A stretch of DNA of 64,000 nt from a bacterium (GTDB lineage: Bacteria > UBP18 > UBA7526), in contig JAUWYL010000003.1 of the NCBI GenBank assembly GCA_030615855.1, positions 2,384-66,383 on the forward strand. Direction: 5' to 3'. The notes below the pieces were generated by a model. The model searched no databases and was not told where the DNA came from. It was given only the letters and a program-made list of their open reading frames with translations. Shown here in pieces: positions 20,854 to 38,087 of this stretch. How positions within the stretch are numbered: position 1 is the first letter of the stretch; each line of letters starts with the position of its first letter. The translations under genes and the position numbers were made by a program.

Positions 20854-21396
20854 TTAAATTTTTCTGGGAAGCAAGGTAGAGACTTCAAAGGTGACATTCA
20901 GCAGTTCACGTCTAATAGACTGAGGGGTGATGTGTAGCCTCCGTACTTCTAAGGAGTGGGGTGAACTCTCTACGGAATAAAGATACCTGGTCAATTGTTC
21001 CAAGGTAACCGCCCTTAACTTGACTCTAACCAGTGACCTCCGATACCTCTCACTCACCACCCTCTCCTCTGGTTTTAGGTAGTCTATTCTCTCCTTAATC
21101 CCTGCCTGAGAGGCGAGGTCCTCTAAGTGAGAGAAAAGGGTAAAGTCGGGAGGCCTTGTGACCATTCTCTCATCAAAGGACTTCAATCTCTCCTCCAGAG
21201 TAAGATAACGGCTCTGGAGATGATACATCTCTTCCAGATCCTTCTCTAACTTTCTATTCACTCTCTCCAGAGTTCTCATTCTCTTGTGGCCAGAGGAGAG
21301 AAGTCGGAAGAAGATGAGAAGGAGGAGAAGGACTATTCCCCCGATAAGAAGAAGCCTCTCCCTTTTGGCTAACCTTATCTTGGGTAGTTTAAACAT
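20854..21396 (-). CDS. GspM/PilO-like inner-membrane assembly protein
   Basis: 180 aa. Single N-terminal TM helix followed by a coiled-coil and periplasmic domain. Lies immediately downstream of the GspL/PilM-like gene. Confidence 0.5.
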   Translation of the reverse strand: MFKLPKIRLAKRERLLLIGGIVLLLLLIFFRLLSSGHKRMRTLERVNRKLEKDLEEMYHLQSRYLTLEERLKSFDERMVTRPPDFTLFSHLEDLASQAGIKERIDYLKPEERVVSERYRRSLVRVKLRAVTLEQLTRYLYSVESSPHSLEVRRLHITPQSIRRELLNVTFEVSTLLPRKI

Positions 21397-23396
21397 TATT
21401 CCTTCCTGTGTTTCACAGTCATTCTGAACTCCACGCTTCTCCCCCTTCTACTCAGATGGGCATCGCTCACCGCGACTTCCGTGAAATAGTCTGAGGCCTC
21501 AAGAACCCTTTTGAAGCGATCGACGAGAGAGAAGTCGGGGAGTGAAGTGCTTCCCCTTATTCTGGTCTCGTCCCAGTCAATGGAAAGGTCCTCTAAACTT
21601 ATTTCCAAATCTTGGGGAGTGAGGGAGGAGATTTCTTTCAGGATAGTCAGAGAAGAAAATTCTCTTGGTGAGAGGGCAAGGTCTTCTTCTCTCTTCTCTA
21701 AACTGCTCTTCATCTGGACTAAGGGATCGACAATATTGGTGACTTCAGGAAAGGTTTTTTTGAAGACTAAGCGAATCTCCTTTTTTAGTTTCGCGCTTCT
21801 TTTATTCTTGAGGTAGAGATGGAGATAGAAGTCCAGAAGGCCCAGGAGAAAGATGGAAAGAAGTAGGATGGTGGCTGGCTTAAGAAGGGGCCGGGCCTCC
21901 TCCAATCTCTTGATGAGGGGCTTCTCCTCCCGGATGAAATTAAGGGATGCCCTGGTCCTGGCCATTCCACGCAAGGCAATCCCCATCGCCTGGGGGAGGA
22001 GGGGTCTAGTTTTCTCTAAAGTAGAGCTATCTAGCGTACTAGAGATCTCCCTTAAGGAAGGAGTAAGAAGCTCCTTTAGGCGCAAGAAAAATGGTCTAGG
22101 GAGGGATAGCTTAAAGAAAGGATTGAAGAGAGAGGTTTCTATATTGAGGCTCTTCTGGAAGTATTCAACTATTTCGGGCAGGCGGGCACTTCCTCCAGTC
22201 AATAGGATTTTTTCTATACTCTTATCTGGGTAGAAAGCCAGGAAGGATGAGAAGGTATGCTCTATCTCTTTTATAATTTCATCCAGAACAGGCTCTATCG
22301 CCTTTAACTTCTCCTCATCGAGCTCTTCCCTCTGGGGCAGAGGCCCTTCTGGGCCGGAGGCCCTCTTTAACTTCTCCGCCTCTTTGAAGCTTACCCCAAA
22401 TCTCTCTGCCAAAACCTGGCTGACGTTATCCCCGGCCTTAGGGATACTCCGAGTGAAGAAGAGTCTCCCCTCACTTATAATATCGATTATTGTCTGGCCT
22501 GCTCCAAGATTGATAAGGGCAACGATCTCTTTATCCTCTTTCAGGGCATAGATATTGAAGAGGCTAGTACTATCAAGGTCCACAACCTCTGGCCTAAGCC
22601 CCGCCTTATCCAAAATCCTAAGGTGTTTTTCGATCACTTTCTTGTTGAAGGCAAAGGCTAAGACCAGGGTCCTGTCTGGGAGACGATCATCTACGATATA
22701 GAAATCAATAATCGCCTCTTCCAGGGGAAATGGGAGATGGGGCTCTAACTCATACCTTATTACCTGGCGGATCTTCCTTGAACCCTTAAAGGGCAGGGAG
22801 AGCCTCTTAATTACAGAAGAGGAGGCAGGAAGGGAGGAGATTACTCTTTCTTTTTCTCCTTTAACCCCGCCCATTGGTAAAGGGGCGGGGCGAGCCTGGG
22901 AGAGGAGTTCGGCTATTGTTCGGACAATTATCTCCTCCTCTGCTTCACCCTTCTCTTCCCTGGGAATCTCCTTCTCCCAGAAGTTAAGGAGTCTCACTCC
23001 CCTTCTGGTCTTCAATAACCGGGTAACTTTTATACTATTTGTCCCGATATCTAGGCCCAGGGCCTCTTTCCCTTTTAGGAATTTCTTTACCTTTACTCCT
23101 TTTATTTTCGAACGAAGTGAGAAAACAAGGTTCTTGAGTGTAGCGAAAGGCTTTCTTATTTTATGAGCAAGGCGAATAAAACAAGGTTCTGTGAAGCAGG
23201 TTCTTATTTTGGCCAGACCCTTCTTTATCAGGGGGTTTAACCTATTCCGAACGAAATGAGACATCTTCTGGAAGACGGAAAGAAGAAAGCCTTTTACACG
23301 AAGAAGAAGAGTCTTACTTTTAGTAAAAATAGTGCTCGTTAGTCTCTTCATCCTTCCCATCTTTTCTTTTAGATTGAGTTCCCGAATCTTAAACAT
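21396..23396 (-). CDS. GspL / PilM-PilN-like fusion protein
   Basis: Actin-like ATPase N-domain (LGLDIGTNSIKV...), internal TM helix (LLLSIFLLGLLDFYLHLYL) and a periplasmic PilN/GspL-like tail. The first ~100 codons of the tracked ORF translate interspersed repeats (23100-23220), so the true start may lie near 23070. Confidence 0.55.
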   Translation of the reverse strand: MFKIRELNLKEKMGRMKRLTSTIFTKSKTLLLRVKGFLLSVFQKMSHFVRNRLNPLIKKGLAKIRTCFTEPCFIRLAHKIRKPFATLKNLVFSLRSKIKGVKVKKFLKGKEALGLDIGTNSIKVTRLLKTRRGVRLLNFWEKEIPREEKGEAEEEIIVRTIAELLSQARPAPLPMGGVKGEKERVISSLPASSSVIKRLSLPFKGSRKIRQVIRYELEPHLPFPLEEAIIDFYIVDDRLPDRTLVLAFAFNKKVIEKHLRILDKAGLRPEVVDLDSTSLFNIYALKEDKEIVALINLGAGQTIIDIISEGRLFFTRSIPKAGDNVSQVLAERFGVSFKEAEKLKRASGPEGPLPQREELDEEKLKAIEPVLDEIIKEIEHTFSSFLAFYPDKSIEKILLTGGSARLPEIVEYFQKSLNIETSLFNPFFKLSLPRPFFLRLKELLTPSLREISSTLDSSTLEKTRPLLPQAMGIALRGMARTRASLNFIREEKPLIKRLEEARPLLKPATILLLSIFLLGLLDFYLHLYLKNKRSAKLKKEIRLVFKKTFPEVTNIVDPLVQMKSSLEKREEDLALSPREFSSLTILKEISSLTPQDLEISLEDLSIDWDETRIRGSTSLPDFSLVDRFKRVLEASDYFTEVAVSDAHLSRRGRSVEFRMTVKHRKE

Positions 23397-23531
23397 CGTG
23401 TCCCTTTGTCACTCGGTTAGGGTTAAGGTTAGGTTGTTAGTTTGGTCGTTGGGTTAGGTTGTTAGTCTTTTTAAACACCTAACCCTCACCAAACTACCAT
23501 ACCCACTACTTTACCCTAACCCAACTACTAA
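23397..23531. repeat. palindromic element of ggttaggttgttag ... ctaaccc k-mers
   Basis: Left arm ggttagggttaaggttaggttgttag. Right arm cctaaccctcacc...ccctaacccaactactaa. Confidence 0.6.
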
Positions 23532-26360
23532 TCACTTCAGTATTTCCTTCGCGGCCCAAACCACGGGTTTGAAATAGAACCTTACCATCTTCTTCAAGGC
23601 TTCTTTGTTCCTTATAAAGTTAGCAACTGGTGGGCTAATTCTGTTATAGAAGGAAATGAAGGCTCTGCCTGCTCTATTGGGCAAAAGATATCTATCCCTG
23701 AATTCACAGAGAATTTTCTCTTCCTCTGCCATCGGTGTTCCATAGGCGGCAGTAGCGATGAGGCAGCCGCCTCCGCCACCTCCTCCGCCTCCGCCTCCGG
23801 CAGGGGCGGCGATGGTGGTGAATTGATAGTAGGAACCACCATTATTATCTGTGGTCTGGTTCTCAACTGTGTCGCTTGAGGTAACCTGATAGTAGTATAG
23901 GGTCGAGGAACTTAAATTAGAGAGGGTAACGGAGTGAGAAGTGGTCTGGGTGGGATCCTGAGTAGTGGAACCAGGGGGAGTGGTAGTTCCATGCTTCACG
24001 ATACTATCACTCGCTTCATCTGTGGTCCAGGTGATGGTGCAGGTAGTGGAACCAGGAGAGGCGCTGACATTAGTTATTACGGGGTCCTGAGCATCTATGG
24101 TAGCGGTGTCGGTTCTCTCTCCAGGAGGGCTGGCATCAGTATAGGTAGCGGTTATGGTATCTCCGTGGGCTACCTGTAATTCTCCGGTACCCGGAGCCTC
24201 CGTAGTCAGGGTTACTGAGCCTTTGAAGCAATTTGTAGTCCCTCCCGTCTCTTCTAGGATTATGGTCTCCGAATCACCAGTAAGAAAACTGGTCATAACT
24301 ACTTCATCAGTGGTAAAACCAATGTCTGGGGTAGTATCTAAATTAGAATCCCAGAGGGTGATGTTTACTTTGGCAGAACCATTATAAACCCCGGCATCTA
24401 AATTGATTAAACCAGTAGGAACAGGTATATGGAAAGGGGTCTCGGGGTCACCGAAGAGGTTGAGAGCAAAGTAGCACCACCTTATCGCTCCTGTGCTGTC
24501 TACAGATCCATCGTTATCTTCTTTTGAATCTTGGTTAATCCTGCCCAGATTGGTTATTCCCTCATCGAATAAAGCATCCCAGAACTGGCGGTCGAACCTC
24601 TGAGAGGCTCCATTGGTGCTTCCCTGGACATACCAGCCATACCTTGAATTCCCCACAAAGGCGAAGGCACCATTGGCTTCGGTGGTGAAGTGTTCCAGGA
24701 TAGAGTCATAATTATAATAATAACTACTGCTGGTACTACGATTGTCGAAGGCTCCGCAGTAACAGCCCTGGGTATAGCCAAAGAAGTAATCGGTATTGGT
24801 CAAGGCATCGACATCCGCGTTGTACATCTTCATATCATAGTTTACATTAGCATGGCCCAGATGGTTTATAACGTGAAGGCCATTATTGATATATCCGGTG
24901 AGGGTGCTCTTCGACCAAAAAGCATCGTAATCATAGAGGGTATTGAGATCGCTGAAGAAGGAACAGTCAGTGAAGCCTTTGGTGGTATAGTAATTAATGG
25001 AGCCAGTTCGAACCTCTTCTTTATAATCCCTTCCCCAGGTTGGGTAACTATCCAGTTTTTCAGCGACCATATAAGCGGTGTGGAGATAATCAGTAGTAGC
25101 ATCCTCATAGGCCAAGGTCTTCTTGACGAAGTTGGAGAGTTCTGTAGTAGAATCAACGGGCGCTCTTCCCACATAGACCTCAGCGTAGAGGTCGATTTCT
25201 CCCCCGTCTACGCCATCGTTCGATTCCCCATATATTCCATCAGCATCGTTGTCAAACGTTCCATCGAGACAGGCATAGTACATATCGGCCGGAATATCGT
25301 TGTCTGCTGGTGTAGGAGGAGAACTTGACACATAGCCATAGAATCCACGATGGGGAATGATGGGTTCTGCCTCCCTCTCGCCATCGGCACTGCCACCTCC
25401 GTCACCGTCCCCAACCAAGAGGATATAATCGGTAGCCCAACCACCTTCAACCACAGGTTTATTGGCATCGAAGATGAAGTTTCGAATCTTGGTCTGATTG
25501 TCCGTTCCTCCATCAGGACGGGTTCCGCTATAGTTGGCATATATCCATTCTGTGGTTACGATATTGGTAGTGATTCCGCGATTGTTCTTACTCTGAGTTA
25601 AATCCTGGAGATCATAGGTTCCGGAGTAGTTCTTGAAAGTATCATTGGTAATGATGACATAATCGTAGGGACCTCCTGACAAGAGAGGGCCACCGTCTAA
25701 GGCGGTCTTAATGGCCCGGGAGTAGCTCTTTGTATCTTGAGGATTATTTACTATCTTCCCGATTACTCTTTCATCCTTGGCTAAACCACGGTATAAGGGA
25801 GGAGCAGTTATTTCGCGGACGGGAATAGTCTCTACCTCAATGGTCATATTTTTATAATAGGAGAGCCTTTTCTCTTGAGGGATATATTCCATAGGATGGA
25901 GGTTGACGGGTAGGATGCGATAACCCCTCTTATTCTGTACGGACTTTGGAGTGTGGAGTTTGCCCGGGAAAGGATTCCTGGATTGATATATTCTCTTATC
26001 CGGTAGAGTCTTAGATACTTTCCCTCTATAACTCAAGGGCACCGGCCTCTGTCCCGGTTCGACGTTATAGGTGCCGGAGAGTTCTATCTTCTGTGCAGGA
26101 ATAATATTTATTCCCTTGACCTTTTGGCCAAAGGGGATGAGGACTTTAACTGTCTTTATGGGAAGGACGGGCTCTCCAGGCTCGCCTATAGTGGATGAGC
26201 CCTTCATACTTATCCTGTGGTATTCACCAACCCTGTTAATCTGGGGAGAGGGGAAGGTTATTTCTATTCTGATGGAATTATTCCTTGCCTGCAAATAATA
26301 AGTTCCACTACTTAGAAGTAGCAGACTGATAATTATTACTAGGATGTTAACTATTTTCAC
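23532..26360 (-). CDS. C25 (gingipain-like) cysteine peptidase with propeptide-like N-domain, FN3/Ig-like domains and CFIATAAY-type C-terminal sorting domain
   Basis: Signal peptide. Candidate catalytic pair in HVINHLGHANV and YTQGCYCGAFD (His-Gly ... Gln-x-Cys). FN3-like segment. G11 linker followed by CLIATAAYG...FRDRYLL...SPPVANFIRNKEALK. Confidence 0.6.
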   Translation of the reverse strand: MKIVNILVIIISLLLLSSGTYYLQARNNSIRIEITFPSPQINRVGEYHRISMKGSSTIGEPGEPVLPIKTVKVLIPFGQKVKGINIIPAQKIELSGTYNVEPGQRPVPLSYRGKVSKTLPDKRIYQSRNPFPGKLHTPKSVQNKRGYRILPVNLHPMEYIPQEKRLSYYKNMTIEVETIPVREITAPPLYRGLAKDERVIGKIVNNPQDTKSYSRAIKTALDGGPLLSGGPYDYVIITNDTFKNYSGTYDLQDLTQSKNNRGITTNIVTTEWIYANYSGTRPDGGTDNQTKIRNFIFDANKPVVEGGWATDYILLVGDGDGGGSADGEREAEPIIPHRGFYGYVSSSPPTPADNDIPADMYYACLDGTFDNDADGIYGESNDGVDGGEIDLYAEVYVGRAPVDSTTELSNFVKKTLAYEDATTDYLHTAYMVAEKLDSYPTWGRDYKEEVRTGSINYYTTKGFTDCSFFSDLNTLYDYDAFWSKSTLTGYINNGLHVINHLGHANVNYDMKMYNADVDALTNTDYFFGYTQGCYCGAFDNRSTSSSYYYNYDSILEHFTTEANGAFAFVGNSRYGWYVQGSTNGASQRFDRQFWDALFDEGITNLGRINQDSKEDNDGSVDSTGAIRWCYFALNLFGDPETPFHIPVPTGLINLDAGVYNGSAKVNITLWDSNLDTTPDIGFTTDEVVMTSFLTGDSETIILEETGGTTNCFKGSVTLTTEAPGTGELQVAHGDTITATYTDASPPGERTDTATIDAQDPVITNVSASPGSTTCTITWTTDEASDSIVKHGTTTPPGSTTQDPTQTTSHSVTLSNLSSSTLYYYQVTSSDTVENQTTDNNGGSYYQFTTIAAPAGGGGGGGGGGGCLIATAAYGTPMAEEEKILCEFRDRYLLPNRAGRAFISFYNRISPPVANFIRNKEALKKMVRFYFKPVVWAAKEILK

Positions 26361-26364: not shown

Positions 26365-27033
26365 TTACTTCTCCTTTACTGGATAGGTCGCGATGGCCTG
26401 TGGGTTTTCCACCATCTTCTTAATCCTTTCTCTATCCTCTGGTTTTCCTCTAAATAACGTCGGCTTTGAAGCAGAAATTGTGGTTACCTCTATCTTTATG
26501 CTCTCATAATAAGAAAGTTCTCTTTTTCCCGGAATATATTTTACAGGATGAAGATTGAGAAGAAGTATTTTATATCCTCTCATACTCTGGATTGACTTAT
26601 TAGAATATAACCTGCCCGGAAAGGGATGATTAGAACTATAGATTTTATCTTTGAGAAAAGGAAGGGGCACTTTCCCTCGATATCTTAAGGGAACTGGTCT
26701 TTGACCGGGTTCTACCAGATATTTTCCCTTTAAAATCCTTTCCTTTTTAGAAGATACCTTTATTCTCTTCACTTCCTGGCCAAAGGGAATTAGTATCTTG
26801 ATCGTCTTTACTGGTAATACTGGTTCTCCCGGCTGGCCAAGACTGGGCATCCCTTTTATAGTCACCCGGTGATATTCCCTGACCTCAGTAATCGTGGGGG
26901 AGGGGAAGTCTATCTCGATTCTAATACCATGGTTTCTGATTAATAAAGAATGAAGACCACTTCCCAGAAATATTATACTGACCATGGCTACTATACCGAT
27001 TTTCCTCATCTCAAACTCCCCCCTTTCCCTCAC
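26365..27033 (-). CDS. stand-alone paralogue of the peptidase propeptide-like N-domain
   Basis: 222 aa with signal peptide. Aligns along its whole length with residues ~20-200 of the 942-aa peptidase (e.g. IRIEIDFPSPTITEVREYHRVTIKG vs IRIEITFPSPQINRVGEYHRISMKG; EPGQRPVPLRYRGKV vs EPGQRPVPLSYRGKV). Confidence 0.5.
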   Translation of the reverse strand: MRERGEFEMRKIGIVAMVSIIFLGSGLHSLLIRNHGIRIEIDFPSPTITEVREYHRVTIKGMPSLGQPGEPVLPVKTIKILIPFGQEVKRIKVSSKKERILKGKYLVEPGQRPVPLRYRGKVPLPFLKDKIYSSNHPFPGRLYSNKSIQSMRGYKILLLNLHPVKYIPGKRELSYYESIKIEVTTISASKPTLFRGKPEDRERIKKMVENPQAIATYPVKEK

Positions 27034-27038: not shown

Positions 27039-27953
27039 TTACATTACTCTCCAGTATTTTATCTCTAAACTTTTGCCTTGCCTCTCTAAGATGGTCTTTA
27101 TTCTCTTCCTCGTCTCTCCCAAGGCCCCTTGAGAAAAGATAGAGAAGGAGTTGCTCTTCACAGTAATGAGAGGGCTAATCTTATTATAGAGTCTATCAAC
27201 TATTCCGAAGACTTCCTTTAGGTCTGTAATCTTCTCAAAAGGGCGATCCTCCCGATATTTTACAATCTCTTGGGCCAAACCCTCATCAATATCAGAATGG
27301 AGGGCCTGAAGAACAATGGAAGGGGCGGTATTGATATTCACCTTACCATCCCCATAGACCGTAAGATAGGAATCCAGGGAGCCTCTTTCCTTTTCTTTTC
27401 CATAGAAGACTTCGTCATTGAAATCTTTTAGGAGGAAGAGTTCATCTATTGTGTTCAGAGGGCCGTTCTTACAAGGGTAGGGGTTTTCCAGATTAGAGTA
27501 ATAATCATCCTCTGTCCCAAAATCCCTCACTTCATCATCCTCATCAAGCCAGTCGCAGATTATATCGACAAGCTCCTTATCGATCTCAAGGACCTCAAAT
27601 AGCCTCTCTAACATTACCTTCTTTTTCTTATCAACCTTACCTTCCTTACCCAAAAGGGAGTTGATATTTATCTTACCACACTCATCTATAATGTGAAAAG
27701 TTATCGCTCCTTCCTCCATAGCAACCGGTGGCTTGGCTAAAGCCCAATCCTCATCCAAGGAGTCACAACTTAAGTCATCATCATCCCTTAAGAGGAGATA
27801 GGCAAAGTTAATCCCAGAATTCGCCAGATAATAAGATTTGAGGCTATCCCGATAATTTCCCGAGATCTCTGCCTCCACTCTCATGAGATAGTTAAACTCC
27901 AAGACCAAAACCGCTAAGATTGTAATAACCACCAGGGTGAGAACTAAGGCCAT
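27039..27953 (-). CDS. gspK: type II secretion minor pseudopilin GspK
   Basis: Prepilin-like TM segment MALVLTLVVITILAVLVLEFNYL, then a GspK-like periplasmic domain. Start placed at Met30 of the tracked ORF, downstream of the caccgattc tandem repeat. Confidence 0.65.
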   Translation of the reverse strand: MALVLTLVVITILAVLVLEFNYLMRVEAEISGNYRDSLKSYYLANSGINFAYLLLRDDDDLSCDSLDEDWALAKPPVAMEEGAITFHIIDECGKININSLLGKEGKVDKKKKVMLERLFEVLEIDKELVDIICDWLDEDDEVRDFGTEDDYYSNLENPYPCKNGPLNTIDELFLLKDFNDEVFYGKEKERGSLDSYLTVYGDGKVNINTAPSIVLQALHSDIDEGLAQEIVKYREDRPFEKITDLKEVFGIVDRLYNKISPLITVKSNSFSIFSQGALGETRKRIKTILERQGKSLEIKYWRVM

Positions 27954-27969
27954 CCCTCTTTGAGAATTA

Positions 27970-28003
27970 ATCGGTGAATCGGGGAATCGGTGAATCGGTG
28001 ATT
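27970..28003. repeat. tandem repeat (unit ~9 bp, atcggtgaa / caccgattc) in the gspJ-gspK spacer
   Basis: atcggtgaatcggggaatcggtgaatcggtgatt read directly. Confidence 0.7.
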
Positions 28004-28054
28004 TTCCCCGTTTCTCCCTTTCTCCCTGTCTCCGTTTCATAACCCACTCTCACT

Positions 28055-28690
28055 TCATTCTTTTACTGTCTCACTCTTTCCTAAGGGGATAAAAGCCACA
28101 GTGGAAAGCTCCTTTTCTGAGAATTTCAAGGTAACCTTAACCGCCTGGGGCAGGCAGGATTCTTCTTTGCTATCCCACTCATCACGCCATTCTTCCCCAT
28201 CATAATACTTAAACTCCAAACCCTCTAAGCCTTCTATTAGATTCTCTTTCTCTCCTCCCTCAAGAACATCATCATCCGGCGTTCCATCCTCCCTGCGCCA
28301 TAGAGAAAGGTTCTTCCCCTCTTCCTCCGGTTCTGTGAAGTAGCCGATCTCTACCAGATCATACTCCTTGCTATCTTTAAATATTCGCTCATGAGAAGAG
28401 GAGATAAAGTCTATCTTTCCTTCCTCTCCGGCAAACATCACATCCTCACTATCTTCTGAAAAGAAAGAAGAGGTAATTTCATCATTCATCCTGCTTAAGG
28501 TGAGTCTTACCATAGAGAAGGCATCCATCTTTTTCCGGGTATAATTCATAGTATCGATGCTTGAGGCATAGGAAGCGTAGATAATGGTGAGGATGAGGCT
28601 AACGATGGCCACGGCAATTAATATCTCAACCAAAGTGAAACCATTGCGGGTGAGCCGGTGAGAAAGTGAGAAAGTGAGCTTTTTACTCAT
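28055..28690 (-). CDS. gspJ: type II secretion minor pseudopilin GspJ
   Basis: Prepilin N-terminus ...RNGFTLVEILIAVAIVSLILTIIYASY (G/FTLxE cleavage and methylation motif). Probable start at MSKK. Confidence 0.65.
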   Translation of the reverse strand: MSKKLTFSLSHRLTRNGFTLVEILIAVAIVSLILTIIYASYASSIDTMNYTRKKMDAFSMVRLTLSRMNDEITSSFFSEDSEDVMFAGEEGKIDFISSSHERIFKDSKEYDLVEIGYFTEPEEEGKNLSLWRREDGTPDDDVLEGGEKENLIEGLEGLEFKYYDGEEWRDEWDSKEESCLPQAVKVTLKFSEKELSTVAFIPLGKSETVKE

Positions 28691-28734
28691 TTTTACACAC
28701 CTGCCTACTTTCACACCTGCCTGCTTTCTCCATT

Positions 28735-29097
28735 TTATTCACGTTTGGCAAGATAAGTAACTACTTCAAGGTTCTTCTCATCCCAGGAGATGGTCAAGGT
28801 CACCTTCCTCAAATCTTCCATAGGAGTCTCGGCCACTCTTTCTCTCCAAGTAAAACCAGGGTACTCCTCTCCAAAGTCCCCTTCTTCTCCTCCTACCTCA
28901 GGGAATCCCTCTAATTCTATCTCAGCCATCTTTCCCTGAGCAAGCAAGGTAGCTAAGGAAAAGTCCTGGGACTCGTTAGCCATACTTATTCCCAGACCAT
29001 AGGAATGGAGGATAACTACTAAAGCAATAGCGATAATGGCTATCGCGATCATCACCTCAATCAGGGTGAAGCCTTTCTTCTTCCACATATCCTTCAT
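28735..29097 (-). CDS. gspI: type II secretion minor pseudopilin GspI
   Basis: MKDMWKKKGFTLIEVMIAIAIIAIALVVIL prepilin leader and N-terminal helix. 120 aa. Confidence 0.7.
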   Translation of the reverse strand: MKDMWKKKGFTLIEVMIAIAIIAIALVVILHSYGLGISMANESQDFSLATLLAQGKMAEIELEGFPEVGGEEGDFGEEYPGFTWRERVAETPMEDLRKVTLTISWDEKNLEVVTYLAKRE

Positions 29098-29575: not shown

Positions 29576-29590
29576 GCCACAAGCTTCTTT

Positions 29591-29638: not shown

Positions 29639-29639
29639 T

Positions 29640-30080
29640 TTACTTCTCCAGTGCCCAGCTCTGGATATCGGCATCATTCCCTTCCCCGCCTTCGGCTCCA
29701 TCTGCACCATAGGAGACAATATCATACTCCTTATTGTGCACCCCAGGTGAGATATAGACATAGGGGTTCCCCCAGGGATCGAAGGGAATCTCTTTGGCCT
29801 CTAAGTAGCCCCCCTCCTTCCAGTTCTTCGTCTCTCTTCCTGTAGTGGGCTTCTCAACCAGGGCCTTCAAGCTCTGCTCTGTTGAAGGATAGAAACCATT
29901 ATCTAACTTAAAGAGCTTCAGAGCTCCCTCAAAGTTCTTGATCTGAATGATGGTTGCCGTCCTCTTTGCCTGCTCCTCCCGGCCCATGAATTTAGGCACT
30001 ACAATGGTGGCCAGGATAGCCAGGATGACGATGACGATCATCAATTCAATCAGAGTAAAACCTCTTTCATTTTTTCTCAT
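29640..30080 (-). CDS. gspG: type II secretion major pseudopilin GspG
   Basis: MRKNERGFTLIELMIVIVILAILATIVVPKF, followed by the conserved GspG globular domain. 146 aa. Confidence 0.85.
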   Translation of the reverse strand: MRKNERGFTLIELMIVIVILAILATIVVPKFMGREEQAKRTATIIQIKNFEGALKLFKLDNGFYPSTEQSLKALVEKPTTGRETKNWKEGGYLEAKEIPFDPWGNPYVYISPGVHNKEYDIVSYGADGAEGGEGNDADIQSWALEK

Positions 30081-30229: not shown

Positions 30230-31441
30230 TTAGCGGATGGCTTGGCTCATTTCAAAGATAGGTAATAGAATGGCTAAGACGATAAATCCCACCACAAGTC
30301 CCATTAAGAGTATAAGAATGGGTTCCAAGAGAGCAGTCAGGGTACCAACCGTGGCCTCCACCTCGCTATCATAGGTATCCGCTGCCTTATAGAGTAAATC
30401 CTCTAAGTTCCCGCTCTTCTCTCCAGAGGCGATCATTCTGACCACGATGGGAGGGAAGACCTTATTCCTGGATAAGGGAGCAGCCAGGCTCTCCCCCCTC
30501 CTCACGCTCTCCCCCGCCTCTCCAATGGCTTCTGAGAGAACCCGATTGCCCACGATATTCTTGACAATCTCTAAGGAACTCAAGAGGGGAACCCCGCCAG
30601 CCAGAAGGGTAGCTAAGGTGCGTGAGAACCTGGCCAGGGCGATCCCCTGGTTCAGAGGTCCAAAGAGAGGAACTCTTAGCCTCAGTCGATCGAAGATTTT
30701 CCCTCCTCCTTCTGTTTTGATATATCTCTTCATCCCAAAGATAAAGACAATGACTATTAGTAAGAGAAGCCACCAGTAGCCTTTGAAGAAGTCGCCTAAT
30801 TTAATCAGGATGATGGTGGGGAGGGGAAGAGAGGCCTGAAAAGTGGTAAATAGGCTAGTCACCCGAGGAATGACGAAGGTAAAGAGAAAGGATAGAACCA
30901 GGATGCCGATGGCCACAATGAAGAGGGGGTAGGCTAAAGCAGCCCTTATTCTATTCTCTAAGCGTAGGTGCTTCTCATTATAATCTGCCAAGCGTTCCAG
31001 AACAAGTTCTAATGCTCCGGCACTTTCACCGGCTCTAATCATACTGACATAGAGGCCAGAAAAGACCTTAGGATATTGGCTAAGGGCACTAGAGAGGGTG
31101 GAACCTGACTTTACCCTTTCGCGAACATCAACCAGGGCCTTCTTCAAAGTCTGATTCTCTAACTGCTCGCTCACCCCAGAGAGGGCCTCAGTGAGGGGAA
31201 GGCCGGCACTCAATAAAGTGGCCAGCTGCCGAGTAAGAATGGCTAAATCTCTTATCCTTACCCTCTTAAATATCCTTATCTCTCGTGAGGGAATAAGGGA
31301 GGGAAGAGATTCCTTTAAGGAGGTGAGATGTAAACCTTCTTGATGGAGCTTAGCCCGGGCTTCGGCAGGACTATCGGCATCGATGATTCCCCTCTTCCTC
31401 TTTCCCGACTTATCAAGGGCCTGATACTCAAAGACTGCCAT
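30230..31441 (-). CDS. gspF: type II secretion / type IV pilus platform protein GspF
   Basis: 403 aa. Two GspF/PilC repeats, each with cytoplasmic domain plus TM helices (e.g. GLPLTEALSGVSEQLEN, GGVPLLSSLEIVKNIVGNRV). Confidence 0.85.
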   Translation of the reverse strand: MAVFEYQALDKSGKRKRGIIDADSPAEARAKLHQEGLHLTSLKESLPSLIPSREIRIFKRVRIRDLAILTRQLATLLSAGLPLTEALSGVSEQLENQTLKKALVDVRERVKSGSTLSSALSQYPKVFSGLYVSMIRAGESAGALELVLERLADYNEKHLRLENRIRAALAYPLFIVAIGILVLSFLFTFVIPRVTSLFTTFQASLPLPTIILIKLGDFFKGYWWLLLLIVIVFIFGMKRYIKTEGGGKIFDRLRLRVPLFGPLNQGIALARFSRTLATLLAGGVPLLSSLEIVKNIVGNRVLSEAIGEAGESVRRGESLAAPLSRNKVFPPIVVRMIASGEKSGNLEDLLYKAADTYDSEVEATVGTLTALLEPILILLMGLVVGFIVLAILLPIFEMSQAIR

Positions 31442-31645: not shown

Positions 31646-32065
31646 CTACCTTTTGGGTTGAGGTAGCATAGATTTTACCCAAGCGAAAAAGCGCTCAGTA
31701 TGCTTAATTATCTCTATTGCTTCTTTCTGGGTAAATAACCGCTCTTCATATTCTATGAGATTTTTCTTAGCGATGACCTTCCGCAGATGTTGAGCATTTC
31801 TCCTGGCATCAGGGGTTTTTATTGATTCGATTAATAAGCGTACTGCTTCTCTATGATCTGGGCTGGTACTTCTCACCTTGCGATAAAAAGTAAGCAGGGC
31901 ATCGTTAGCAGATATAACGCAGTGTACTGCTTCCAACCCTGCTGAATTCCAGTTGCCTTTTTCATAAGCCAATCTCATAGCCCGATGGAAATCCCGAGAT
32001 TTCCTAAAGTAATTTAGATACTCGCCAGGTTCAATCTTTTTGAATTTAGTCTTCTTAGCTATCAA
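31646..32065 (-). CDS. HEPN-domain protein (HepT-like toxin candidate)
   Basis: 139 aa, all-helical. R-x4-6-H motif in RRNAQHLRK. Overlaps the upstream nucleotidyltransferase gene by 11 bp. Confidence 0.6.
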   Translation of the reverse strand: MIAKKTKFKKIEPGEYLNYFRKSRDFHRAMRLAYEKGNWNSAGLEAVHCVISANDALLTFYRKVRSTSPDHREAVRLLIESIKTPDARRNAQHLRKVIAKKNLIEYEERLFTQKEAIEIIKHTERFFAWVKSMLPQPKR

Positions 32066-32678
32066 TTGTTAGCACCTCAGTTAAACTTTTTCCTTGAATT
32101 ACTTTTCCCTCTTTAATAATTCTCCCTATTAGCCTCTCTTTTGCCTTTTGCTTTTTAGTAAATTCCCTAAGGGTTAAGATATATGGGGAAACTACATTTC
32201 CAAAGGTATCCATTAATTCCATATTCAGGGAGTCGAATTTTCGCTCTACCTTCTTCTTTTCTTTCTGGCGGGAAACCAGTACTAAAAGGTCGATGTCGCT
32301 ATCGGAACTTTCTCTACCTTGAGCAAAACTTCCAAAAAGTATTACGGAGACTACTGTTCTATTAAAGGATTTAGTTATTTTCTTTAATGCTGTCTGAAGC
32401 AAGCCTGCCTCTTTTTTAAATAAAGGTTGGAGCACATGAGAGACTAAATAATTTGTTTCTTTTAAACCGAATAAATGAGCCTTACCTACCTTCTGTCTAG
32501 TGACTATTCCTTCGTTTATCAATTCTCTTAATGCCAAATGGCAGGTTCTATGGTTCAGTCCGCTGAGTTGGGCTATTTGACGACCGGTTATTTCTATTTT
32601 ACTTTTAAATAATACACGCAATATTTTAATCTTAGATCTCTGTCCCAATACCTCTTCCAAGACATTGTGCATACGCAT
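32055..32678 (-). CDS. minimal nucleotidyltransferase (MntA-like antitoxin candidate) with N-terminal winged-HTH
   Basis: wHTH segment GRQIAQLSGLNHRTCHLALRELINEGIV. Pol-beta-type motif ILFGSFAQGRESSDSDIDLLVL. Confidence 0.65.
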   Translation of the reverse strand: MRMHNVLEEVLGQRSKIKILRVLFKSKIEITGRQIAQLSGLNHRTCHLALRELINEGIVTRQKVGKAHLFGLKETNYLVSHVLQPLFKKEAGLLQTALKKITKSFNRTVVSVILFGSFAQGRESSDSDIDLLVLVSRQKEKKKVERKFDSLNMELMDTFGNVVSPYILTLREFTKKQKAKERLIGRIIKEGKVIQGKSLTEVLTIDS

Positions 32679-33332: not shown

Positions 33333-35120
33333 TTAGACTACTATTTCCTGGGTGACGCGCAGGACTTCTTCTAAGGTGGTGATTCCAGATAAGATCTTCT
33401 CCACCCCTGCCTGCTGTAAGGTGGTCATCCCTTTGGAGACGGCCTTCTGCTTTATAAGGTTGGTCTCTTTCTTATTGGTAATCATATCCCTTATCTCATC
33501 ATCTATTACTAATAGTTCGAAGATCCCGGTCCTTCCCCAATATCCAGTATCGAGACAAAAAGGACAACCCTTTCCTCTCCAGAGAACTCCCTCCGGGCCA
33601 GAGGCCCTCTGAGCCGGCGGCCCTTCCCTCCGGGGCAGAGCCCCCTCTCTCCGAGCCAGAGGCTCTTCCGAGCCGGAGGCTGGGGCGGAGCCTTTAAGGT
33701 CAGAAGGTTTCAATCCCACCTCTGCTAAGGACTCTGGCGTTGGAGTATAGGACTCCTTGCATTTTGGGCAGATGAGGCGAACTAATCTCTGGGCCATGAT
33801 CCCGATTATTGAAGAAGAGGCAAGATAGGGCTCCACCCCCATCTCGAGTAGTCTGGTAATGGCTCCGGCAGCATCATTGGTATGGAGAGTAGAGAAGACC
33901 AAGTGGCCGGTTAAAGCAGCGTGGATGGCAATCTCTGCGGTCTCGAAGTCTCGGATCTCACCCACCATCATAACATCCGGGTCCTGCCTCACAATAGACC
34001 TTAATCCAGAAGCAAAGGTTAAACCGATCTTGGGCTTTACCTGTATCTGTCCGATCCCCTCTAACTGATACTCAATGGGATCCTCCACAGTAATGATGTT
34101 TTTGTCCGGGGTATTAATGCGGTCTAAAGCACTATACAGAGTGGTCGTCTTACCTGACCCTGTTGGCCCAGTATTCAGTATGATACCATGGGAACTTTTG
34201 ATTAATTTGAGGAGCTTTTCCAGGTTCTTTTGAGAGAAGCCTAAGTTCTCCAATCTGAAGGACATACTCGACTTATCCAATAACCTCATCACTACCCTCT
34301 CCCCAAAGAAGGTGGGAATTACTGAGACTCGGATATCAATGTCCTTTCCCGCCATCTTGATACTTATTCTTCCATCCTGGGGAAGCCTTCTCTCAGCAAT
34401 ATTTAAGCTGGCCATTACTTTTACCCGAGAGACGATGGCCGGTTGATGACTACGCTCATTACGCAGAATATCATATAGCACGCCATCTACTCTATATCGT
34501 ATCCTCAGTTCCTTCTCAAAGGGCTCGATGTGGATATCACTGGCCCTCTTCTTTAAGGCCTCAATAATGAGGGAGTCAACGAACTTAATAATGGGTGGTT
34601 TGGAAGCCAAGTCCAATAAATCCTCTGCCCCTTCAAATGTTCCTTCCCCTTTTCCAAAATCAACCTTCTCAAACTCCTTTATGATTTCAGTGGCGCTCTC
34701 TCCCTCCTGGGCACCATAACCCCTTTCAATCCCTTTGAGAATCTCCTCTTCCGGAACGATGACCATCCTTAGAGGATGGGTCAGGATAAGGCGGAGATTA
34801 TCAATGGGACCAGGGTCCAAAGGATCAGAGGTAGCCACCCTCTCTCCTTTCAGGGGAAGAAGGCAACACCTCTTGAGGAAAGAATGGGAGAGTTCAGAGA
34901 GTCCCTCAGAATCGATATCCTCATCTGAGAGATGGTCCAAGTAGGGGACATGAAGTTTTTCACTCAAGACCCGCAGAATCTCTTCCTGAGTAAGAAACTT
35001 TAGTTGTAAGAGAACCTTATCTAATCTCTCATTGGTCCTTCCCTGTAAGTCTAAAGCCTCTTTTAATTCTTCCTTAGTTATCTTCTTATCCTTCAGGAGG
35101 ATCTCACCCAGATTCTCCAT
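33333..35120 (-). CDS. gspE: type II secretion / type IV pilus assembly ATPase GspE
   Basis: N1 domain, Walker A GPTGSGKTT, Asp and His boxes. C-terminal Cys pairs CPKC ... CPFC are separated by an in-frame low-complexity Gly/Pro/Arg insertion encoded by GC-rich tandem ccggagg/gagccgg repeats (~33590-33700). Confidence 0.85.
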   Translation of the reverse strand: MENLGEILLKDKKITKEELKEALDLQGRTNERLDKVLLQLKFLTQEEILRVLSEKLHVPYLDHLSDEDIDSEGLSELSHSFLKRCCLLPLKGERVATSDPLDPGPIDNLRLILTHPLRMVIVPEEEILKGIERGYGAQEGESATEIIKEFEKVDFGKGEGTFEGAEDLLDLASKPPIIKFVDSLIIEALKKRASDIHIEPFEKELRIRYRVDGVLYDILRNERSHQPAIVSRVKVMASLNIAERRLPQDGRISIKMAGKDIDIRVSVIPTFFGERVVMRLLDKSSMSFRLENLGFSQKNLEKLLKLIKSSHGIILNTGPTGSGKTTTLYSALDRINTPDKNIITVEDPIEYQLEGIGQIQVKPKIGLTFASGLRSIVRQDPDVMMVGEIRDFETAEIAIHAALTGHLVFSTLHTNDAAGAITRLLEMGVEPYLASSSIIGIMAQRLVRLICPKCKESYTPTPESLAEVGLKPSDLKGSAPASGSEEPLARREGALPRREGPPAQRASGPEGVLWRGKGCPFCLDTGYWGRTGIFELLVIDDEIRDMITNKKETNLIKQKAVSKGMTTLQQAGVEKILSGITTLEEVLRVTQEIVV

Positions 35121-35122: not shown

Positions 35123-37054
35123 TTACTTCCTCTCAAACTCCTCTATCTCTTCCCTCTTTCTCTCAGTCAGGGCTTCGACCTCCTCTGGAGTAGTAACCAC
35201 ATGAGGGGTGAGAAAGATGACCAAGCTTATCTTCTCTGTGACCTCTATCTTTCTCTTGAAGAGCCAGCCCAATCCCGGAATCCTTCCCAGTCCGGGGACC
35301 CTTCTCTCCACAACAGATTTATCTTCTCTCAGTAGGCCCCCAATAACAATGGTCTGGCCATCCCTGACCGTCACTGTGGTATCTGTCTCCCTCTTGGCTA
35401 AAACCGGAGCATCGTGTATCGTCTCTGCTAATACTTTCTGAATCTCCTGATGAATCTTTAAGGTAACAAATCCCTCAGGATTTATCTGGGGGGTGATCTT
35501 CAAGTTTATTCCCACATCCTCATAGGTATAGGTCTTTACCACCGTCTCATCTTCCGTTAGCCGAGAGGCAGTAACCATGGGGACCCTCTTCCCCACCTTG
35601 ATCTCCGCCTCCTGATTATTATTCACCAAGAGATAGGGGGTAGATAGGATATTGAATTCAGAATCAGTCTTATAGAGGTTAACCAGGGCAGCGATATTGG
35701 CTGGCTCATTCTTATATAATCCCAGGGTCATGCCATACAACGTCCCAGCCAAGTACTCTGGTCTCATCCCAAAGTGAGTCACCGCGAGGGGCCGATGGGC
35801 ATGGTCGAGCCGAAATTCTTCTAATGCTGCCCATTCCACTCCTAAGTTCAGGAACTTCTCTAAAGTGACCTCTGCTACCAGAGCCTCCACTAAGACCTGT
35901 TGGCGGGGGATGTCTAGTTTCTCAATAATCTTCTCTAATTCTTCATACTGAGTGGGAGCAGCAATGATGATGAGGGCATTGGTCAATTTATCAGCCACGA
36001 TAGTAGGCTTGGCCTCTATGGCCAGGGCCTTCCCCTTTCCCACTCTGCGAGCAACCATCTTGGCATACATCTCGGTCAAAACCTTGGCTAAGTCCTCAGC
36101 AGTCGAGTTCTTGAGATAGTAGACGTGGATCATCTCCTTCCCTGGAGGAGGCTTCTTATCGATCTCTTCCACAATGGTCATCATTCTCCTTATATTAGAG
36201 GAGACATCTGTAATGATGACCGTATTGGCAGGGGGATAGGTAATGAGATTTCCTCCCGGAGAGATTAAAGGGGTCAAGAGGCTTCGTACCTGATCGCAGG
36301 CAGCATACTCTAAGGGGATGAGCTGGGTGATAATCTTATCCTCTGGGCTTATCCTTTCAACCTCTCTTCCCACTCTGGTCTCAATGCTCTTCCCTTTCGC
36401 TTCCCTTGAGGGAATGACCTTTATCACCTCTCCCGCCGGAACCGTGGTATAGCCCTTCACCTCTAAGATAGACTCTAAGACGTGATATACCTCTTCTAAG
36501 GGAATCTTGGTGGGGGAGATGATGGTTACCTTCCCCCTCACCTTCTCATCGATGACGAAGTTCTTTCCGGTCAATTCGCTTATTGCTTTAATCACTACCT
36601 TAATATCAGCATCCTTGAAATCTAAGGAGACGAGATTCCGGGGTAAGGGTTTCTTAGTAACTTTCTTCTCCTTTGGTGAGATTCTCAAGGAGAGTCTATC
36701 TTTCTGGCTGGTTGCTTTATACTCTGCTGGTTTTTTCAGGTCTATGACCACCCGACTGATACTCTTCGGTCTATCCTTATACTGGGCAGACCTTATGCTC
36801 TTCACCAATGGATGATCGACTACCAATTCTCTCTTAGGCCAGGCATGGATGGTATTGGAAAGGTCTACTACCATACGATTCGGTTTGGTAAGGAGAAAGA
36901 TATTATAATCATGGGGAGAAGGGAGGGTAATATTGACCATTGCCTCCTCTCCCTTGGGTAGAAAAGTTATTTTCGTTAATTTACCTACCGCCCCAGAAAG
37001 GCTACTTCCCAATAGCAGGAAAATTAAAGACGAAATTATTATTCTTGTTTTCAT
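35123..37054 (-). CDS. gspD: type II secretion secretin GspD
   Basis: 643 aa. Signal peptide, N0/N1 periplasmic domains, C-terminal secretin domain (...TVVIGGLLREDKSVVERRVPGLGRIPGLGWLFK). Confidence 0.85.
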   Translation of the reverse strand: MKTRIIISSLIFLLLGSSLSGAVGKLTKITFLPKGEEAMVNITLPSPHDYNIFLLTKPNRMVVDLSNTIHAWPKRELVVDHPLVKSIRSAQYKDRPKSISRVVIDLKKPAEYKATSQKDRLSLRISPKEKKVTKKPLPRNLVSLDFKDADIKVVIKAISELTGKNFVIDEKVRGKVTIISPTKIPLEEVYHVLESILEVKGYTTVPAGEVIKVIPSREAKGKSIETRVGREVERISPEDKIITQLIPLEYAACDQVRSLLTPLISPGGNLITYPPANTVIITDVSSNIRRMMTIVEEIDKKPPPGKEMIHVYYLKNSTAEDLAKVLTEMYAKMVARRVGKGKALAIEAKPTIVADKLTNALIIIAAPTQYEELEKIIEKLDIPRQQVLVEALVAEVTLEKFLNLGVEWAALEEFRLDHAHRPLAVTHFGMRPEYLAGTLYGMTLGLYKNEPANIAALVNLYKTDSEFNILSTPYLLVNNNQEAEIKVGKRVPMVTASRLTEDETVVKTYTYEDVGINLKITPQINPEGFVTLKIHQEIQKVLAETIHDAPVLAKRETDTTVTVRDGQTIVIGGLLREDKSVVERRVPGLGRIPGLGWLFKRKIEVTEKISLVIFLTPHVVTTPEEVEALTERKREEIEEFERK

Positions 37055-37244
37055 TCTATCTCCTTGCCACCGCCGAATTACAAAACAAGTTGGATTAGTG
37101 TATTAGGTAGACTTTTAGGATATTAGTTGGATTAGTGTATTAGGTGGATTAGGTGAAAGTTAATTCAACTAGTCCAACTCATCCAACTAATTTACCAGTC
37201 TAACTATCCTTTTCTGCGTCTTTGCTTCTTCAGCGCTTCTGCGT

Positions 37245-38087
37245 TTAATCTTTTATCTCATAGGTCAAAGTGATGGGACGACCGCCCCTCTCTACTTCCA
37301 CACTGATGATCGGTCTATCCTTCACCTCTTTATACATCTGAATAGCCCTCTCAATACTGTCCAGCCTCTGGCCCTCAACCCCTTTGATGATATCTCCATC
37401 CCTCACGCCCAAGCTCTCAGCCAAGCTCCCCTTCTTGACATCATCTAACCTGAAGCCTCTTATCTGACCAGCCTCTAAGTAAGGTGCAACCTTCACCTGG
37501 GCAAGGAGCTGGTTGGGGTTACTGATCACTGAGGTGAATTTACTTCTGGAAAACGACCATCTATTGCTGGCCACCTTTTCCACCAAACGGGAAGTATCAG
37601 AAGTCATACCAGGAAGAAAGTTCTCACCATAAACTGCCAGGGAGACCAGACCGGCTGAGGTCTTCAAGACAACATGGTCTCTCTCAATCTTGACTATCTC
37701 ATTTTCCCCTACCAAGTCCCCTTTCTTGTAGACTTCCTCCTTCTTAGTATCAGGATCCTCAATGATGCATAGGGATTCCAGGCCCTCTACGACAATGGTC
37801 CCCTTCAGTTTTAGATTCGATACTATACCAGGTAGGGTTTCCAATAGCCCTTCTTCAAGTGAGACCCCTTCTTCCCCAGCAGCAAAGAGATTTCTTTCTA
37901 TAATAATAGAATAATGTTCATAGAGCCTGGGTTCCTCTTTCACTTCCTCTTTTCCTGGAGGAAGCGGAGGAGGCTTAGGAACCGCTACCTTTCCCACGCG
38001 GGCAAAGGAAAGGGAGATATCAATAATAATGGTAAGTGCGATAACGATGAGAACTACATTCAGGATCAGAAAATATTTCTTCAGCAT
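37245..38087 (-). CDS. gspC: GspC-like inner-membrane protein with C-terminal PDZ domain
   Basis: N-terminal TM helix. PDZ segment GFRLDDVKKGSLAESLGVRDGDIIKGVEGQRLDSIERAIQMY. Lies directly upstream of gspD. Confidence 0.6.
   Translation of the reverse strand: MLKKYFLILNVVLIVIALTIIIDISLSFARVGKVAVPKPPPLPPGKEEVKEEPRLYEHYSIIIERNLFAAGEEGVSLEEGLLETLPGIVSNLKLKGTIVVEGLESLCIIEDPDTKKEEVYKKGDLVGENEIVKIERDHVVLKTSAGLVSLAVYGENFLPGMTSDTSRLVEKVASNRWSFSRSKFTSVISNPNQLLAQVKVAPYLEAGQIRGFRLDDVKKGSLAESLGVRDGDIIKGVEGQRLDSIERAIQMYKEVKDRPIISVEVERGGRPITLTYEIKD

Follow-up and report, generated by a model that had tools for sequence, protein, structure and literature searches.

Organisation of the locus

A type II secretion (Gsp) operon lies on the minus strand of contig JAUWYL010000003.1 (assembly GCA_030615855.1, lineage UBP18), in a stretch of 64,000 nucleotides that is referred to throughout as the window. 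Two further genes are embedded in this operon between gspK and gspL. One encodes a cysteine peptidase precursor of family C25, the gingipain family, and the other a separate, free-standing copy of a gingipain-type pro-domain. The features are collected in Table 1. Gene assignments were made by scanning translated open reading frames (ORFs) of the minus (coding) strand with Pfam and NCBIfam profiles.

Table 1 Features of the type II secretion operon, listed in the direction of transcription, followed by other features of the window. Coordinates are window positions.
Feature	Coordinates	Strand	Description
gspC	37245..38087	-	280 aa; HR domain and C-terminal PDZ; Pfam T2SSC and PDZ_6; GspC_delta 137.6 bits, slightly below cut-off 150
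gspD secretin	35123..37054	-	643 aa; AMIN, N0, Secretin_N, Secretin (Pfam); TIGR02517 460 bits, cut-off 351
gspE ATPase	33333..35120	-	595 aa; T2SSE E 3e-141; TIGR02533 665 bits, cut-off 630
wHTH-nucleotidyltransferase	32055-32678	-	Pfam Polbeta, NTP_transf_2
HEPN	31646-32065	-	Pfam HEPN
gspF platform protein	30230..31441	-	403 aa; T2SSF E 5e-67; TIGR02120 466 bits, cut-off 424
gspG major pseudopilin	29640..30080	-	146 aa; T2SSG E 2.4e-40; TIGR01710 174 bits, cut-off 89
gspH-like minor pseudopilin	29057..29677	-	206-aa gene call, start uncertain; N_methyl motif; weak GspH and ComGD matches
gspI	28735..29097	-	120 aa; TIGR01707 53.9 bits, cut-off 44
gspJ	28055..28714	-	219 aa; Pfam T2SSJ E 2e-11
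gspK	27039..28040	-	333 aa; NF037980 170 bits, cut-off 130
Stand-alone gingipain-type pro-domain protein	26365..27009	-	214 aa from ATG 27009; longest ORF to 27033 (222 aa); signal peptide; no catalytic domain
C25 (gingipain-family) cysteine peptidase precursor	23532..26360	-	942 aa; signal peptide; Propeptide_C25; Peptidase_C25 (PF01364) E 4.6e-55; CFI_box_CTERM E 2.2e-24
Peptidase, pro-domain	~25722-26279	-	
Peptidase, catalytic domain	~24423-25673	-	
Peptidase, two beta-sandwich domains	~23811-24413	-	followed by a Gly11 linker
Peptidase, CFI-box-CTERM domain	23535-23765	-	four helices
Long hairpin	23397..23531	-	intergenic, peptidase stop to gspL start; 3' end of inserted segment; no U-tract
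gspL	21396..23396	-	666 aa; PilM-type actin-like (PilM_2 E 1e-37), transmembrane segment, GspL_C/PilN-like periplasmic domain (GspL_C E 2e-8)
gspM-like	20854..21396	-	180 aa; T2SSM E 4e-5, GspM_XpsM E 3.7e-7, both below cut-offs
PorV/PorQ-like outer-membrane beta-barrel	45086..45949	-	287 aa; directly downstream of the 1422-aa protein gene
1422-aa protein	46022..50290	-	three LTD, ComEC-type metallo-beta-lactamase, FlgD_Ig, CFI-box-CTERM; candidate surface nuclease
1094-aa fn3 protein	51055..54339	-	CFI-box-CTERM
Second PorV/PorQ-like barrel	43086-45020		644 aa; fused to two OB folds and HHH_3 (ComEA-type)
tRNA-Asn(GUU), split	38107-38417	-	exon 1 38417-38384; group I intron 38383-38148 (236 nt); exon 2 38147-38107
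Promoter-like site	38461-38433		perfect sigma-70 consensus; just upstream of tRNA-Asn
ComEA-like HHH_3/OB-fold genes (eight)	38696-45020, 59818-60942, 61444-61956, 63377-63958	-	
DUF6036 nucleotidyltransferase-like genes (two)	50308-50874, 55828-56313	-	between and beside CFI-box genes
ParB-like gene	54488-55273		

An earlier note, made from the sequence alone, had read the gene order as gspC-D-E, a toxin-antitoxin cassette, gspF to gspK, the propeptide-like gene, the C25 gene, gspL and gspM. Both the order and the coordinates are borne out by the ORF listing and the profile matches. Because GspD, E, F, G, I and K all exceed their NCBIfam equivalog cut-offs, we regard the locus as a genuine type II secretion operon. 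GspC, GspL and GspM all have orthologues, 72–89% identical, in a syntenic relative (L107, described below). The locus had been called complete, which holds for the core from gspC to gspM but not overall: no prepilin peptidase (GspO or Peptidase_A24) was found among the minus-strand ORFs of at least 150 residues that were scanned, three plus-strand ORFs lying outside the scan, and it may be encoded elsewhere in the genome. GspE is the sole T2SSE-family protein among the scanned ORFs, in line with the claim that the locus has no PilT-like retraction ATPase. Its N-terminus is an MshEN domain of the cyclic di-GMP-binding type (c-di-GMP motif E 3.6e-13).

The nucleotidyltransferase and HEPN genes between gspE and gspF are adjacent and overlap by 11 nt (32055–32065), which fits a putative HEPN/MNT toxin-antitoxin pair. 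The cassette (31646..32678) has a promoter-like site of its own at 32762–32734 and a low GC content at third codon positions (GC3) of 0.34–0.39.

The peptidase and its free-standing pro-domain

In a profile-to-PDB alignment of 26 homologues, the catalytic pair of the peptidase, H503 (codon 24852–24854) and C533 (codon 24762–24764), aligns with H211 (in the motif ..TGHG..) and C244 of RgpB. Both residues are invariant across the 26 homologues. When the PDB was searched with the single 942-residue sequence, the only matches were chains of antibody single-chain variable fragments, picked up through the Gly-rich linker; the gingipains were reached only with the 26-sequence profile. The AlphaFold2 model of the peptidase has a predicted local distance difference test score (pLDDT) of 84.9. 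According to Foldseek its best PDB matches are Kgp and RgpB (E ~2e-19, target-based TM-score, a template modelling score, 0.59–0.67), and its N-terminal domain matches the pro-domains of RgpB and Kgp (TM-score 0.67–0.70). C25 homology, a His/Cys pair that matches the catalytic residues of RgpB, and a gingipain-type pro-domain are thus all found in this protein, which had been described only as C25-like. Against the PorU model NF033707 it scores 49.5 bits, far from the cut-off of 420, and so it does not qualify as a PorU-type sortase. Its C-terminus is the CFI-box four-helix domain, not a type IX secretion C-terminal domain.

The smaller gene had been reported as an ORF of 222 codons. The ORF is real, but its most likely start is the ATG at 27009, which stands behind a GGGGGAG Shine-Dalgarno sequence. 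The protein matches Propeptide_C25 (PF08126) with E 3.6e-15, and a profile finds the Kgp pro-domain 5mun (E 2.4e-9) and also 4ief_A. Its proposed paralogy with the N-terminal domain of the peptidase is confirmed by 53% identity over 195 residues (E 3e-70), an identity that implies an old duplication. Both copies keep the loop PVPL[S/R]YRGK, which aligns with the inhibitory loop of gingipains, and the position of the inhibitory Arg/Lys of gingipains is occupied by Leu in the aligned pro-domain. The GC3 of the gene is 0.39, compared with 0.48–0.60 in the gsp genes, and its codon usage deviates.

A 1.3-kb metagenome contig (L007) contains the last ~77–78 codons of an orthologous ORF, which is 68% identical and has a four-residue deletion in common with the window gene. 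Its stop position and its 4-nt spacing to the C25 start are also identical, and the ratio of non-synonymous to synonymous substitution rates (dN/dS) is 0.30. The earlier note would have been contradicted if the ORF were a pseudogene in relatives; this fragment, a single short one, gives no sign of that. The signal peptide, the conserved loop and the L007 orthologue indicate that the small ORF is maintained as a separate gene. A word-indexed homologue search with the 222-residue protein returned only itself and P0130. P0130 was rejected as a further stand-alone copy, being the frameshifted N-terminus of the adjacent C25 gene on L007.

The gene pair is inserted between gspK and gspL

The reference for the comparison was L107 (GCA_030619985.1); the sequences of relatives come from hydrocarbon and other metagenomes. 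In L107 the gene order is identical from the HHH genes through gspC–M to PEPCK, and the Gsp proteins are 72–93% identical. There, however, the locus contains no pro-domain gene, peptidase gene or toxin-antitoxin cassette, and the stop of gspK overlaps the start of gspL. The N-termini of the two GspL proteins are collinear from residue 8, and the 3.64-kb segment 23397–27038 of the window fits exactly into the gspK/gspL junction. Because gspK abuts gspL in this syntenic relative, the comparison indicates that the gene pair is an accessory, recent and lineage-specific insertion of 3.6 kb, not a conserved part of the machine.

The segment ends in a near-perfect hairpin of 110 nt (RNA fold -53.2 kcal/mol, z -5.5), with a motif, AACAACCTAACC, that occurs twice in it and nowhere else in the window. 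The toxin-antitoxin cassette is absent between gspE and gspF in both L107 and a second relative, L108, and the operons of relatives hold other small insertions, namely 23S_rRNA_IVP genes and GIY-YIG genes.

The inserted genes are tightly packed. The gap between gspK and the small gene is 29 nt (measured from the ATG at 27009), and the GTG start of the peptidase gene lies 4 nt past the stop of the small gene; the AAGGAG Shine-Dalgarno sequence that serves it falls within the 3' end of that small gene. Shine-Dalgarno sequences are present at both genes, and no strong internal promoter was found ahead of the pair. From this arrangement the two genes are predicted to be co-transcribed with the operon and translationally coupled.

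Separately encoded pro-domains in other genomes

Stand-alone pro-domains were sought by several routes. The neighbouring genes of 104 C25 loci were inspected, and among these first loci a stand-alone copy is present only in the window lineage and in L007. An exact-pattern scan of metagenomes for stand-alone copies gave none, and a metagenome scan with a three-sequence alignment gave 17 loci; each of these is the N-terminus of a full-length C25 protein, and none has type II secretion neighbours. Across 1.84 billion representatives, a full HMMER search found 3399 matches, among them several short ones that stop exactly where the pro-domain ends.

In two independent assemblies (L111 and L112; positions 64–2207) a gene for a 233-residue pro-domain is followed 45–54 nt later by a catalytic gene that has no pro-domain. 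The catalytic protein is equipped with a signal peptide of its own, its His/Cys motif is intact, and the separate pro-domain is the only one. In L109 and L110 (L109 1–6648) a gene for a 215-residue pro-domain lies two genes downstream of a giant LTD/FG-GAP/C25 protein, for which no pro-domain is on record. A further match, P0270, is a pro-domain with a dockerin-like tail.

The pro-domains of Rgp inhibit their gingipains in trans with nanomolar inhibition constants (PMC4138498). Since naturally split pro-domain and catalytic genes occur elsewhere, and trans-inhibition has been published for Rgp, a trans-acting role of the small protein, as an inhibitor or a folding aid, becomes more plausible, and it is the reading we consider likeliest.

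The CFI-box-CTERM domain

The CFI-box-CTERM domain (NF041770) is found in three window proteins, at 85.1, 73.4 and 73.5 bits against a cut-off of 40. In the peptidase it is a confidently predicted four-helix domain (AlphaFold2). The tag CFIATAAY that had been assigned to the peptidase is in fact CLIATAAY there; the exact CFIATAAY occurs in the two other proteins. Long forms of the domain have a transmembrane helix and a basic tail beyond the four helices, and short forms, which are those of the window and of Omnitrophota, are without both. A Gly- or Ser-rich linker usually precedes the Cys. Neither "CFI-box-CTERM" nor "CFIATAAYG" occurs in any paper that we found.

The earlier note took the tag to be a sorting signal implying export in two steps. 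There is a precedent for this in VesB and Xds; on the other side, the sorting role is assumed, the sequence belongs to a folded domain, and the domain also occurs without type II secretion genes. We therefore put the CFI-box forward as a sorting tag at the level of a hypothesis. The idea that the short form, lacking the transmembrane helix, is specific to diderm or PorV contexts was abandoned, as P0005 is a short form in an archaeal-looking context.

Another possible protease/inhibitor pairing was seen on a monoderm-looking contig (L106 6434–11735), where a serpin gene lies directly upstream of the gene for a C25-CFI peptidase whose CFI-box precedes a transmembrane anchor.

Linkage to secretins and PorV/PorQ-like barrels

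The C25 family is very large and is found in bacteria and archaea, mostly without type II secretion neighbours. Among the 104 loci, however, there are eight of Omnitrophota type, one of them binned as Planctomycetia, in which a secretin gene stands directly ahead of the C25-CFI gene (L003, L004, L010, L013, L015, L028, L048 and L067). Wherever there is enough downstream sequence (six of six), the next gene encodes a PorV/PorQ-like barrel (E ~1e-11 to 1e-12). The order in L003 (2623–10195) is a small protein of metallo-beta-lactamase (MBL) fold, GspM-like, GspC-like, secretin, C25-CFI, PorV/PorQ-like barrel and GspC-PDZ-like, and there is no GspE, F or G within 10 kb. A relative of the window organism, L002, has a different C25-CFI paralogue (46% identity) between an LTD-MBL-CFI gene and a PorV-like gene, in the adjoining HHH/PorV cluster. 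No description of such an arrangement was found in the literature on type II secretion and C25 in Omnitrophota, or in that on PorU/PorV with secretins.

The window itself encodes two barrels of this kind. The 287-residue barrel scores 61.7 bits (E 8e-17) against NF033709, below the cut-off of 90; its AlphaFold2 model (pLDDT 89) has its best TM-scores to the PorV chains 6h3i_F (0.73) and 8gl6_F (0.71), with a similar E-value for FadL. The second barrel is a fusion (Table 1). With other CFI-box proteins also encoded upstream, these barrels open the way to a PorU-like reading of the peptidase, which is weighed below.

As its gene comes after gspK, the peptidase was also considered as a PilY1-like protein at the tip of the pseudopilus. 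This was rejected because the gene has no conserved position: it follows the secretin gene in Omnitrophota, L002 has it in the HHH cluster, and L107 lacks it.

Other features of the region

Short tandem repeats of 7–8 nt occur at gene starts and in leaders (29590–29639, 27969–28038 and 30128–30185). The gspH leader has seven copies of TGTAGCC directly after the gspG stop (29590–29639), and a change in copy number there could put gspH into another frame. Two 8-nt arrays fall within the first codons of gspK, and five copies of CTTATTAA lie upstream of gspG. A palindromic repeat of 16–21 nt, CCCTCYGRGCCAGAGG, has copies in frame within gspE (33589–33681) and gspL (22328–22366), which add 33 residues to GspE and ASGPEGPLPQR to GspL; they are not present in the relatives' orthologues (562-residue GspE, 612-residue GspL) and resemble in-frame palindromic elements.

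Upstream of gspC, a tRNA-Asn gene is split by a group I intron (Rfam RF00028, 81.9 bits). When its exons are joined, they fold as tRNA-Asn according to ARAGORN. A perfect sigma-70 consensus promoter stands immediately ahead of the gene, and 19 nt separate the tRNA CCA from the gspC ATG. Both L107 and L108 have tRNA-Asn without the intron, and L107 has a free GIY-YIG ORF alongside. A role of the intron as a ribozyme in the 5' untranslated region of the operon was dismissed, since it interrupts the tRNA-Asn gene.

The eight ComEA-like HHH_3/OB-fold genes are an unusually dense group. They include a 631-residue protein in which HHH_3 is fused to a porin-like barrel, the 644-residue barrel fusion of Table 1, and a protein that combines five HHH_3 domains with LysM. 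Together with the LTD/ComEC-type MBL protein, their domain content suggests binding or scavenging of extracellular DNA. The two DUF6036 genes and the ParB-like gene add more small, possibly mobile cassettes to the region.

Comparison with known systems

The resemblance to the gingipains RgpB and Kgp extends to the fold of the pro-domain, the catalytic fold, the His/Cys pair and the Ig-like domain that follows. The sequence identity, however, is only ~15–18%, a type IX C-terminal domain is missing from the window peptidase, and by context the organism does not belong to the Bacteroidota. The window locus also has a second pro-domain as a separate gene, which is undescribed for gingipains. Stand-alone propeptide-like inhibitors are known from other families, such as the subtilisin-propeptide-like proteins of MEROPS family I9 and the cathepsin-propeptide-like CTLA-2 and BCPI of I29. 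Like these, the small protein is a free-standing homologue of a pro-domain, encoded by a separate gene and presumed to inhibit its cognate enzyme in trans; unlike them, it has the fold of a C25 pro-domain and coexists with a pro-domain in cis, and its inhibition is putative. We know of no stand-alone inhibitor of this fold that has been described.

The closest parallel for the whole arrangement is the Eps system of Vibrio cholerae, whose VesB protease and Xds nuclease pass through type II secretion and are then retained at the surface by a C-terminal tag (PMC6219818). Both systems have a Gsp machine with a PDZ-bearing GspC, and in both a protease zymogen and a nuclease-type protein have a common C-terminal domain family; for both, the proposed route is export of the folded pro-enzyme, retention at the surface and activation outside the cell (PMC6219818). 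The differences lie in the tag, which in the window is a CFI-box of ~70 residues and four helices, with a leading Cys and no transmembrane helix, as opposed to the Gly-Gly motif and transmembrane helix of GlyGly-CTERM; in the processing enzyme, as no rhombosortase or other such enzyme was identified for the window system; in the protease, which belongs to clan CD (C25), whereas the VesB type is a trypsin-like serine protease; and in the position of the protease gene, which is embedded in the operon between gspK and gspL.

The PorU-PorV system, part of the type IX attachment complex, also has a C25-type peptidase with its own C-terminal sorting-type domain, an adjacent PorV/PorQ barrel (in the relatives), and several proteins with the same C-terminal domain. 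In contrast, the window proteins fall far short of the cut-offs of these families, a secretin takes the place of SprA/Sov as partner translocon, the C-terminal domain is helical and not a beta-sandwich, and the genes for the peptidase and the barrel are not adjacent.

A model for the gene pair, and its alternatives

On the basis of these observations we lean towards the hypothesis that the gene pair encodes accessory cargo of type II secretion: a latent C25 zymogen with an extra, free pro-domain as guard, exported in the folded state through GspD and retained at the surface by its CFI-box. Both proteins, having predicted signal peptides, would reach the periplasm via Sec. By analogy with gingipains, the protease would fold there as a latent pro-enzyme, and the free pro-domain may act in trans, either as a further inhibitor or in support of folding, catching any enzyme that activates itself prematurely in the periplasm. 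The folded zymogen would then leave through the GspD secretin, as the linkage of the genes suggests, and would be held at the surface by the CFI-box, as for VesB and Xds, perhaps with the help of the PorV/PorQ-like barrel whose gene lies upstream. Once outside the cell, the enzyme would be activated by loss of its pro-domain and would serve in the scavenging of protein, beside the CFI-box nuclease-like protein and the many ComEA-like DNA-binding proteins of the same 34-kb region. What the pair most likely represents is a secreted enzyme added on together with a safety catch of its own, a variant that is uncommon but built on known principles.

Several observations weigh against this hypothesis. 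The operon of L107 has the same genes without the pair. The window operon is a hot spot for unrelated insertions (the toxin-antitoxin cassette, the in-frame palindromic repeats, the nearby group I intron), so that an inserted pair need not be functionally tied to the machine. Export through this Gsp system we infer from gene linkage alone, because the cargo of type II secretion cannot be recognised by any sequence signal. Archaeal-looking and monoderm-looking contexts that lack a secretin also have CFI-box C25 proteins, so the tag is not specific to type II secretion. The dN/dS value of the small gene comes from only ~78 codons on one low-coverage contig. Finally, the Kgp pro-domain shows negligible trans-inhibition (PMC4138498), and trans activity is therefore not universal in the family.

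Some of these points would be expected if the pair were simply a passenger, that is, a horizontally acquired protease module in a permissive junction, whose export runs through Sec and whose anchoring or release does not depend on this system. Besides the absence from L107, this reading has in its favour the HEPN/nucleotidyltransferase cassette and the 23S_rRNA_IVP and GIY-YIG genes that the same operon has gained in different relatives, the GC3 and codon usage of the pro-domain gene, the long hairpin at the edge of the insertion and the C25-CFI proteins without secretins in other taxa. We nevertheless think it unlikely. The genes are co-oriented, tightly packed and without a promoter of their own, so they depend on transcription of the operon; a surface or extracellular protease of a diderm needs a route across the outer membrane; and the C25 clade is linked to secretin genes again in other lineages, in different arrangements. 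It is very unlikely that the small ORF is just a non-functional remnant of a partial tandem duplication that copied the peptidase gene at its 5' end. Its position directly upstream of its paralogue, its restriction to the window lineage and L007 among the loci first looked at, and a GC3 below that of its neighbours would agree with a remnant. But the duplication is old, and the ORF has nevertheless remained intact and retains both a signal peptide and a Shine-Dalgarno sequence; the L007 fragment retains the same stop, spacing and low dN/dS; the putative inhibitory loop is conserved; and independent stand-alone pro-domain genes, including the split cases, lie beside C25 genes elsewhere.

A different role for the peptidase itself is suggested by the seven loci, from at least two lineages, in which a barrel gene directly follows the C25-CFI gene, with a secretin ahead in the Omnitrophota-type loci. 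This parallels the adjacent porU-porV pair, PorU being a gingipain-like sortase that is anchored by PorV and retains its own C-terminal domain (PMC5445135). The C25 protein could accordingly resemble PorU and serve in processing or attachment, with a PorV/PorQ-like barrel as its partner. It would dock on, and perhaps cleave, the CFI-box of surface proteins encoded with it once these have passed the secretin, as a type IX-style attachment module on a type II secretin. The 287-residue window barrel is PorV-like by NCBIfam and by fold, three CFI-box proteins (the peptidase included) are encoded in one region, the linker ahead of the CFI-box Cys is rich in Gly or Ser while PorU favours small P1 residues (PMC5445135), and there are weak NCBIfam matches to PorU of 49.5–65.8 bits. 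These scores are nevertheless far below the cut-off of 420, as those for the PorV family are below 90, and the CFI-box is a four-helix bundle, whereas type IX cargo ends in a beta-sandwich domain. The peptidase gene of the window lies ~19 kb from the PorV-like gene and belongs to the recent insertion absent in L107, the family extends widely through archaea and apparent monoderms, which have no outer membranes, and a zymogen pro-domain with an extra inhibitor copy fits a degradative protease better. We regard this role as decidedly improbable, more so than a passenger origin. More doubtful again is its extension to an undescribed outer-membrane attachment system of non-Bacteroidota diderms (Omnitrophota and the present lineage), of which the CFI-box would be the recognition domain. 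There the C25 protein would take the role of PorU and the PorV/PorQ-like barrel that of PorV, both coupled to a type II secretin rather than a type IX translocon; they would dock or process CFI-box surface enzymes (protease, nuclease-like and fn3), and the stand-alone pro-domain would regulate the sorting peptidase.

Implications

If the favoured hypothesis, a secreted C25 zymogen with a free pro-domain as guard, is correct, C25 pro-domains are naturally used as separately encoded, trans-acting regulators, including in fully split zymogens, which for gingipains have so far been shown only in vitro. They would represent a new class of natural inhibitors of gingipain-like proteases, and type II secretion operons would be able to take up ready-made modules of cargo plus safety catch. 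The recurrence of secretin, C25-CFI and PorV-like barrel in Omnitrophota suggests that components regarded as peculiar to type IX secretion are combined with secretins in other phyla, and this neighbourhood gives the uncharacterised CFI-box domain a testable partner.

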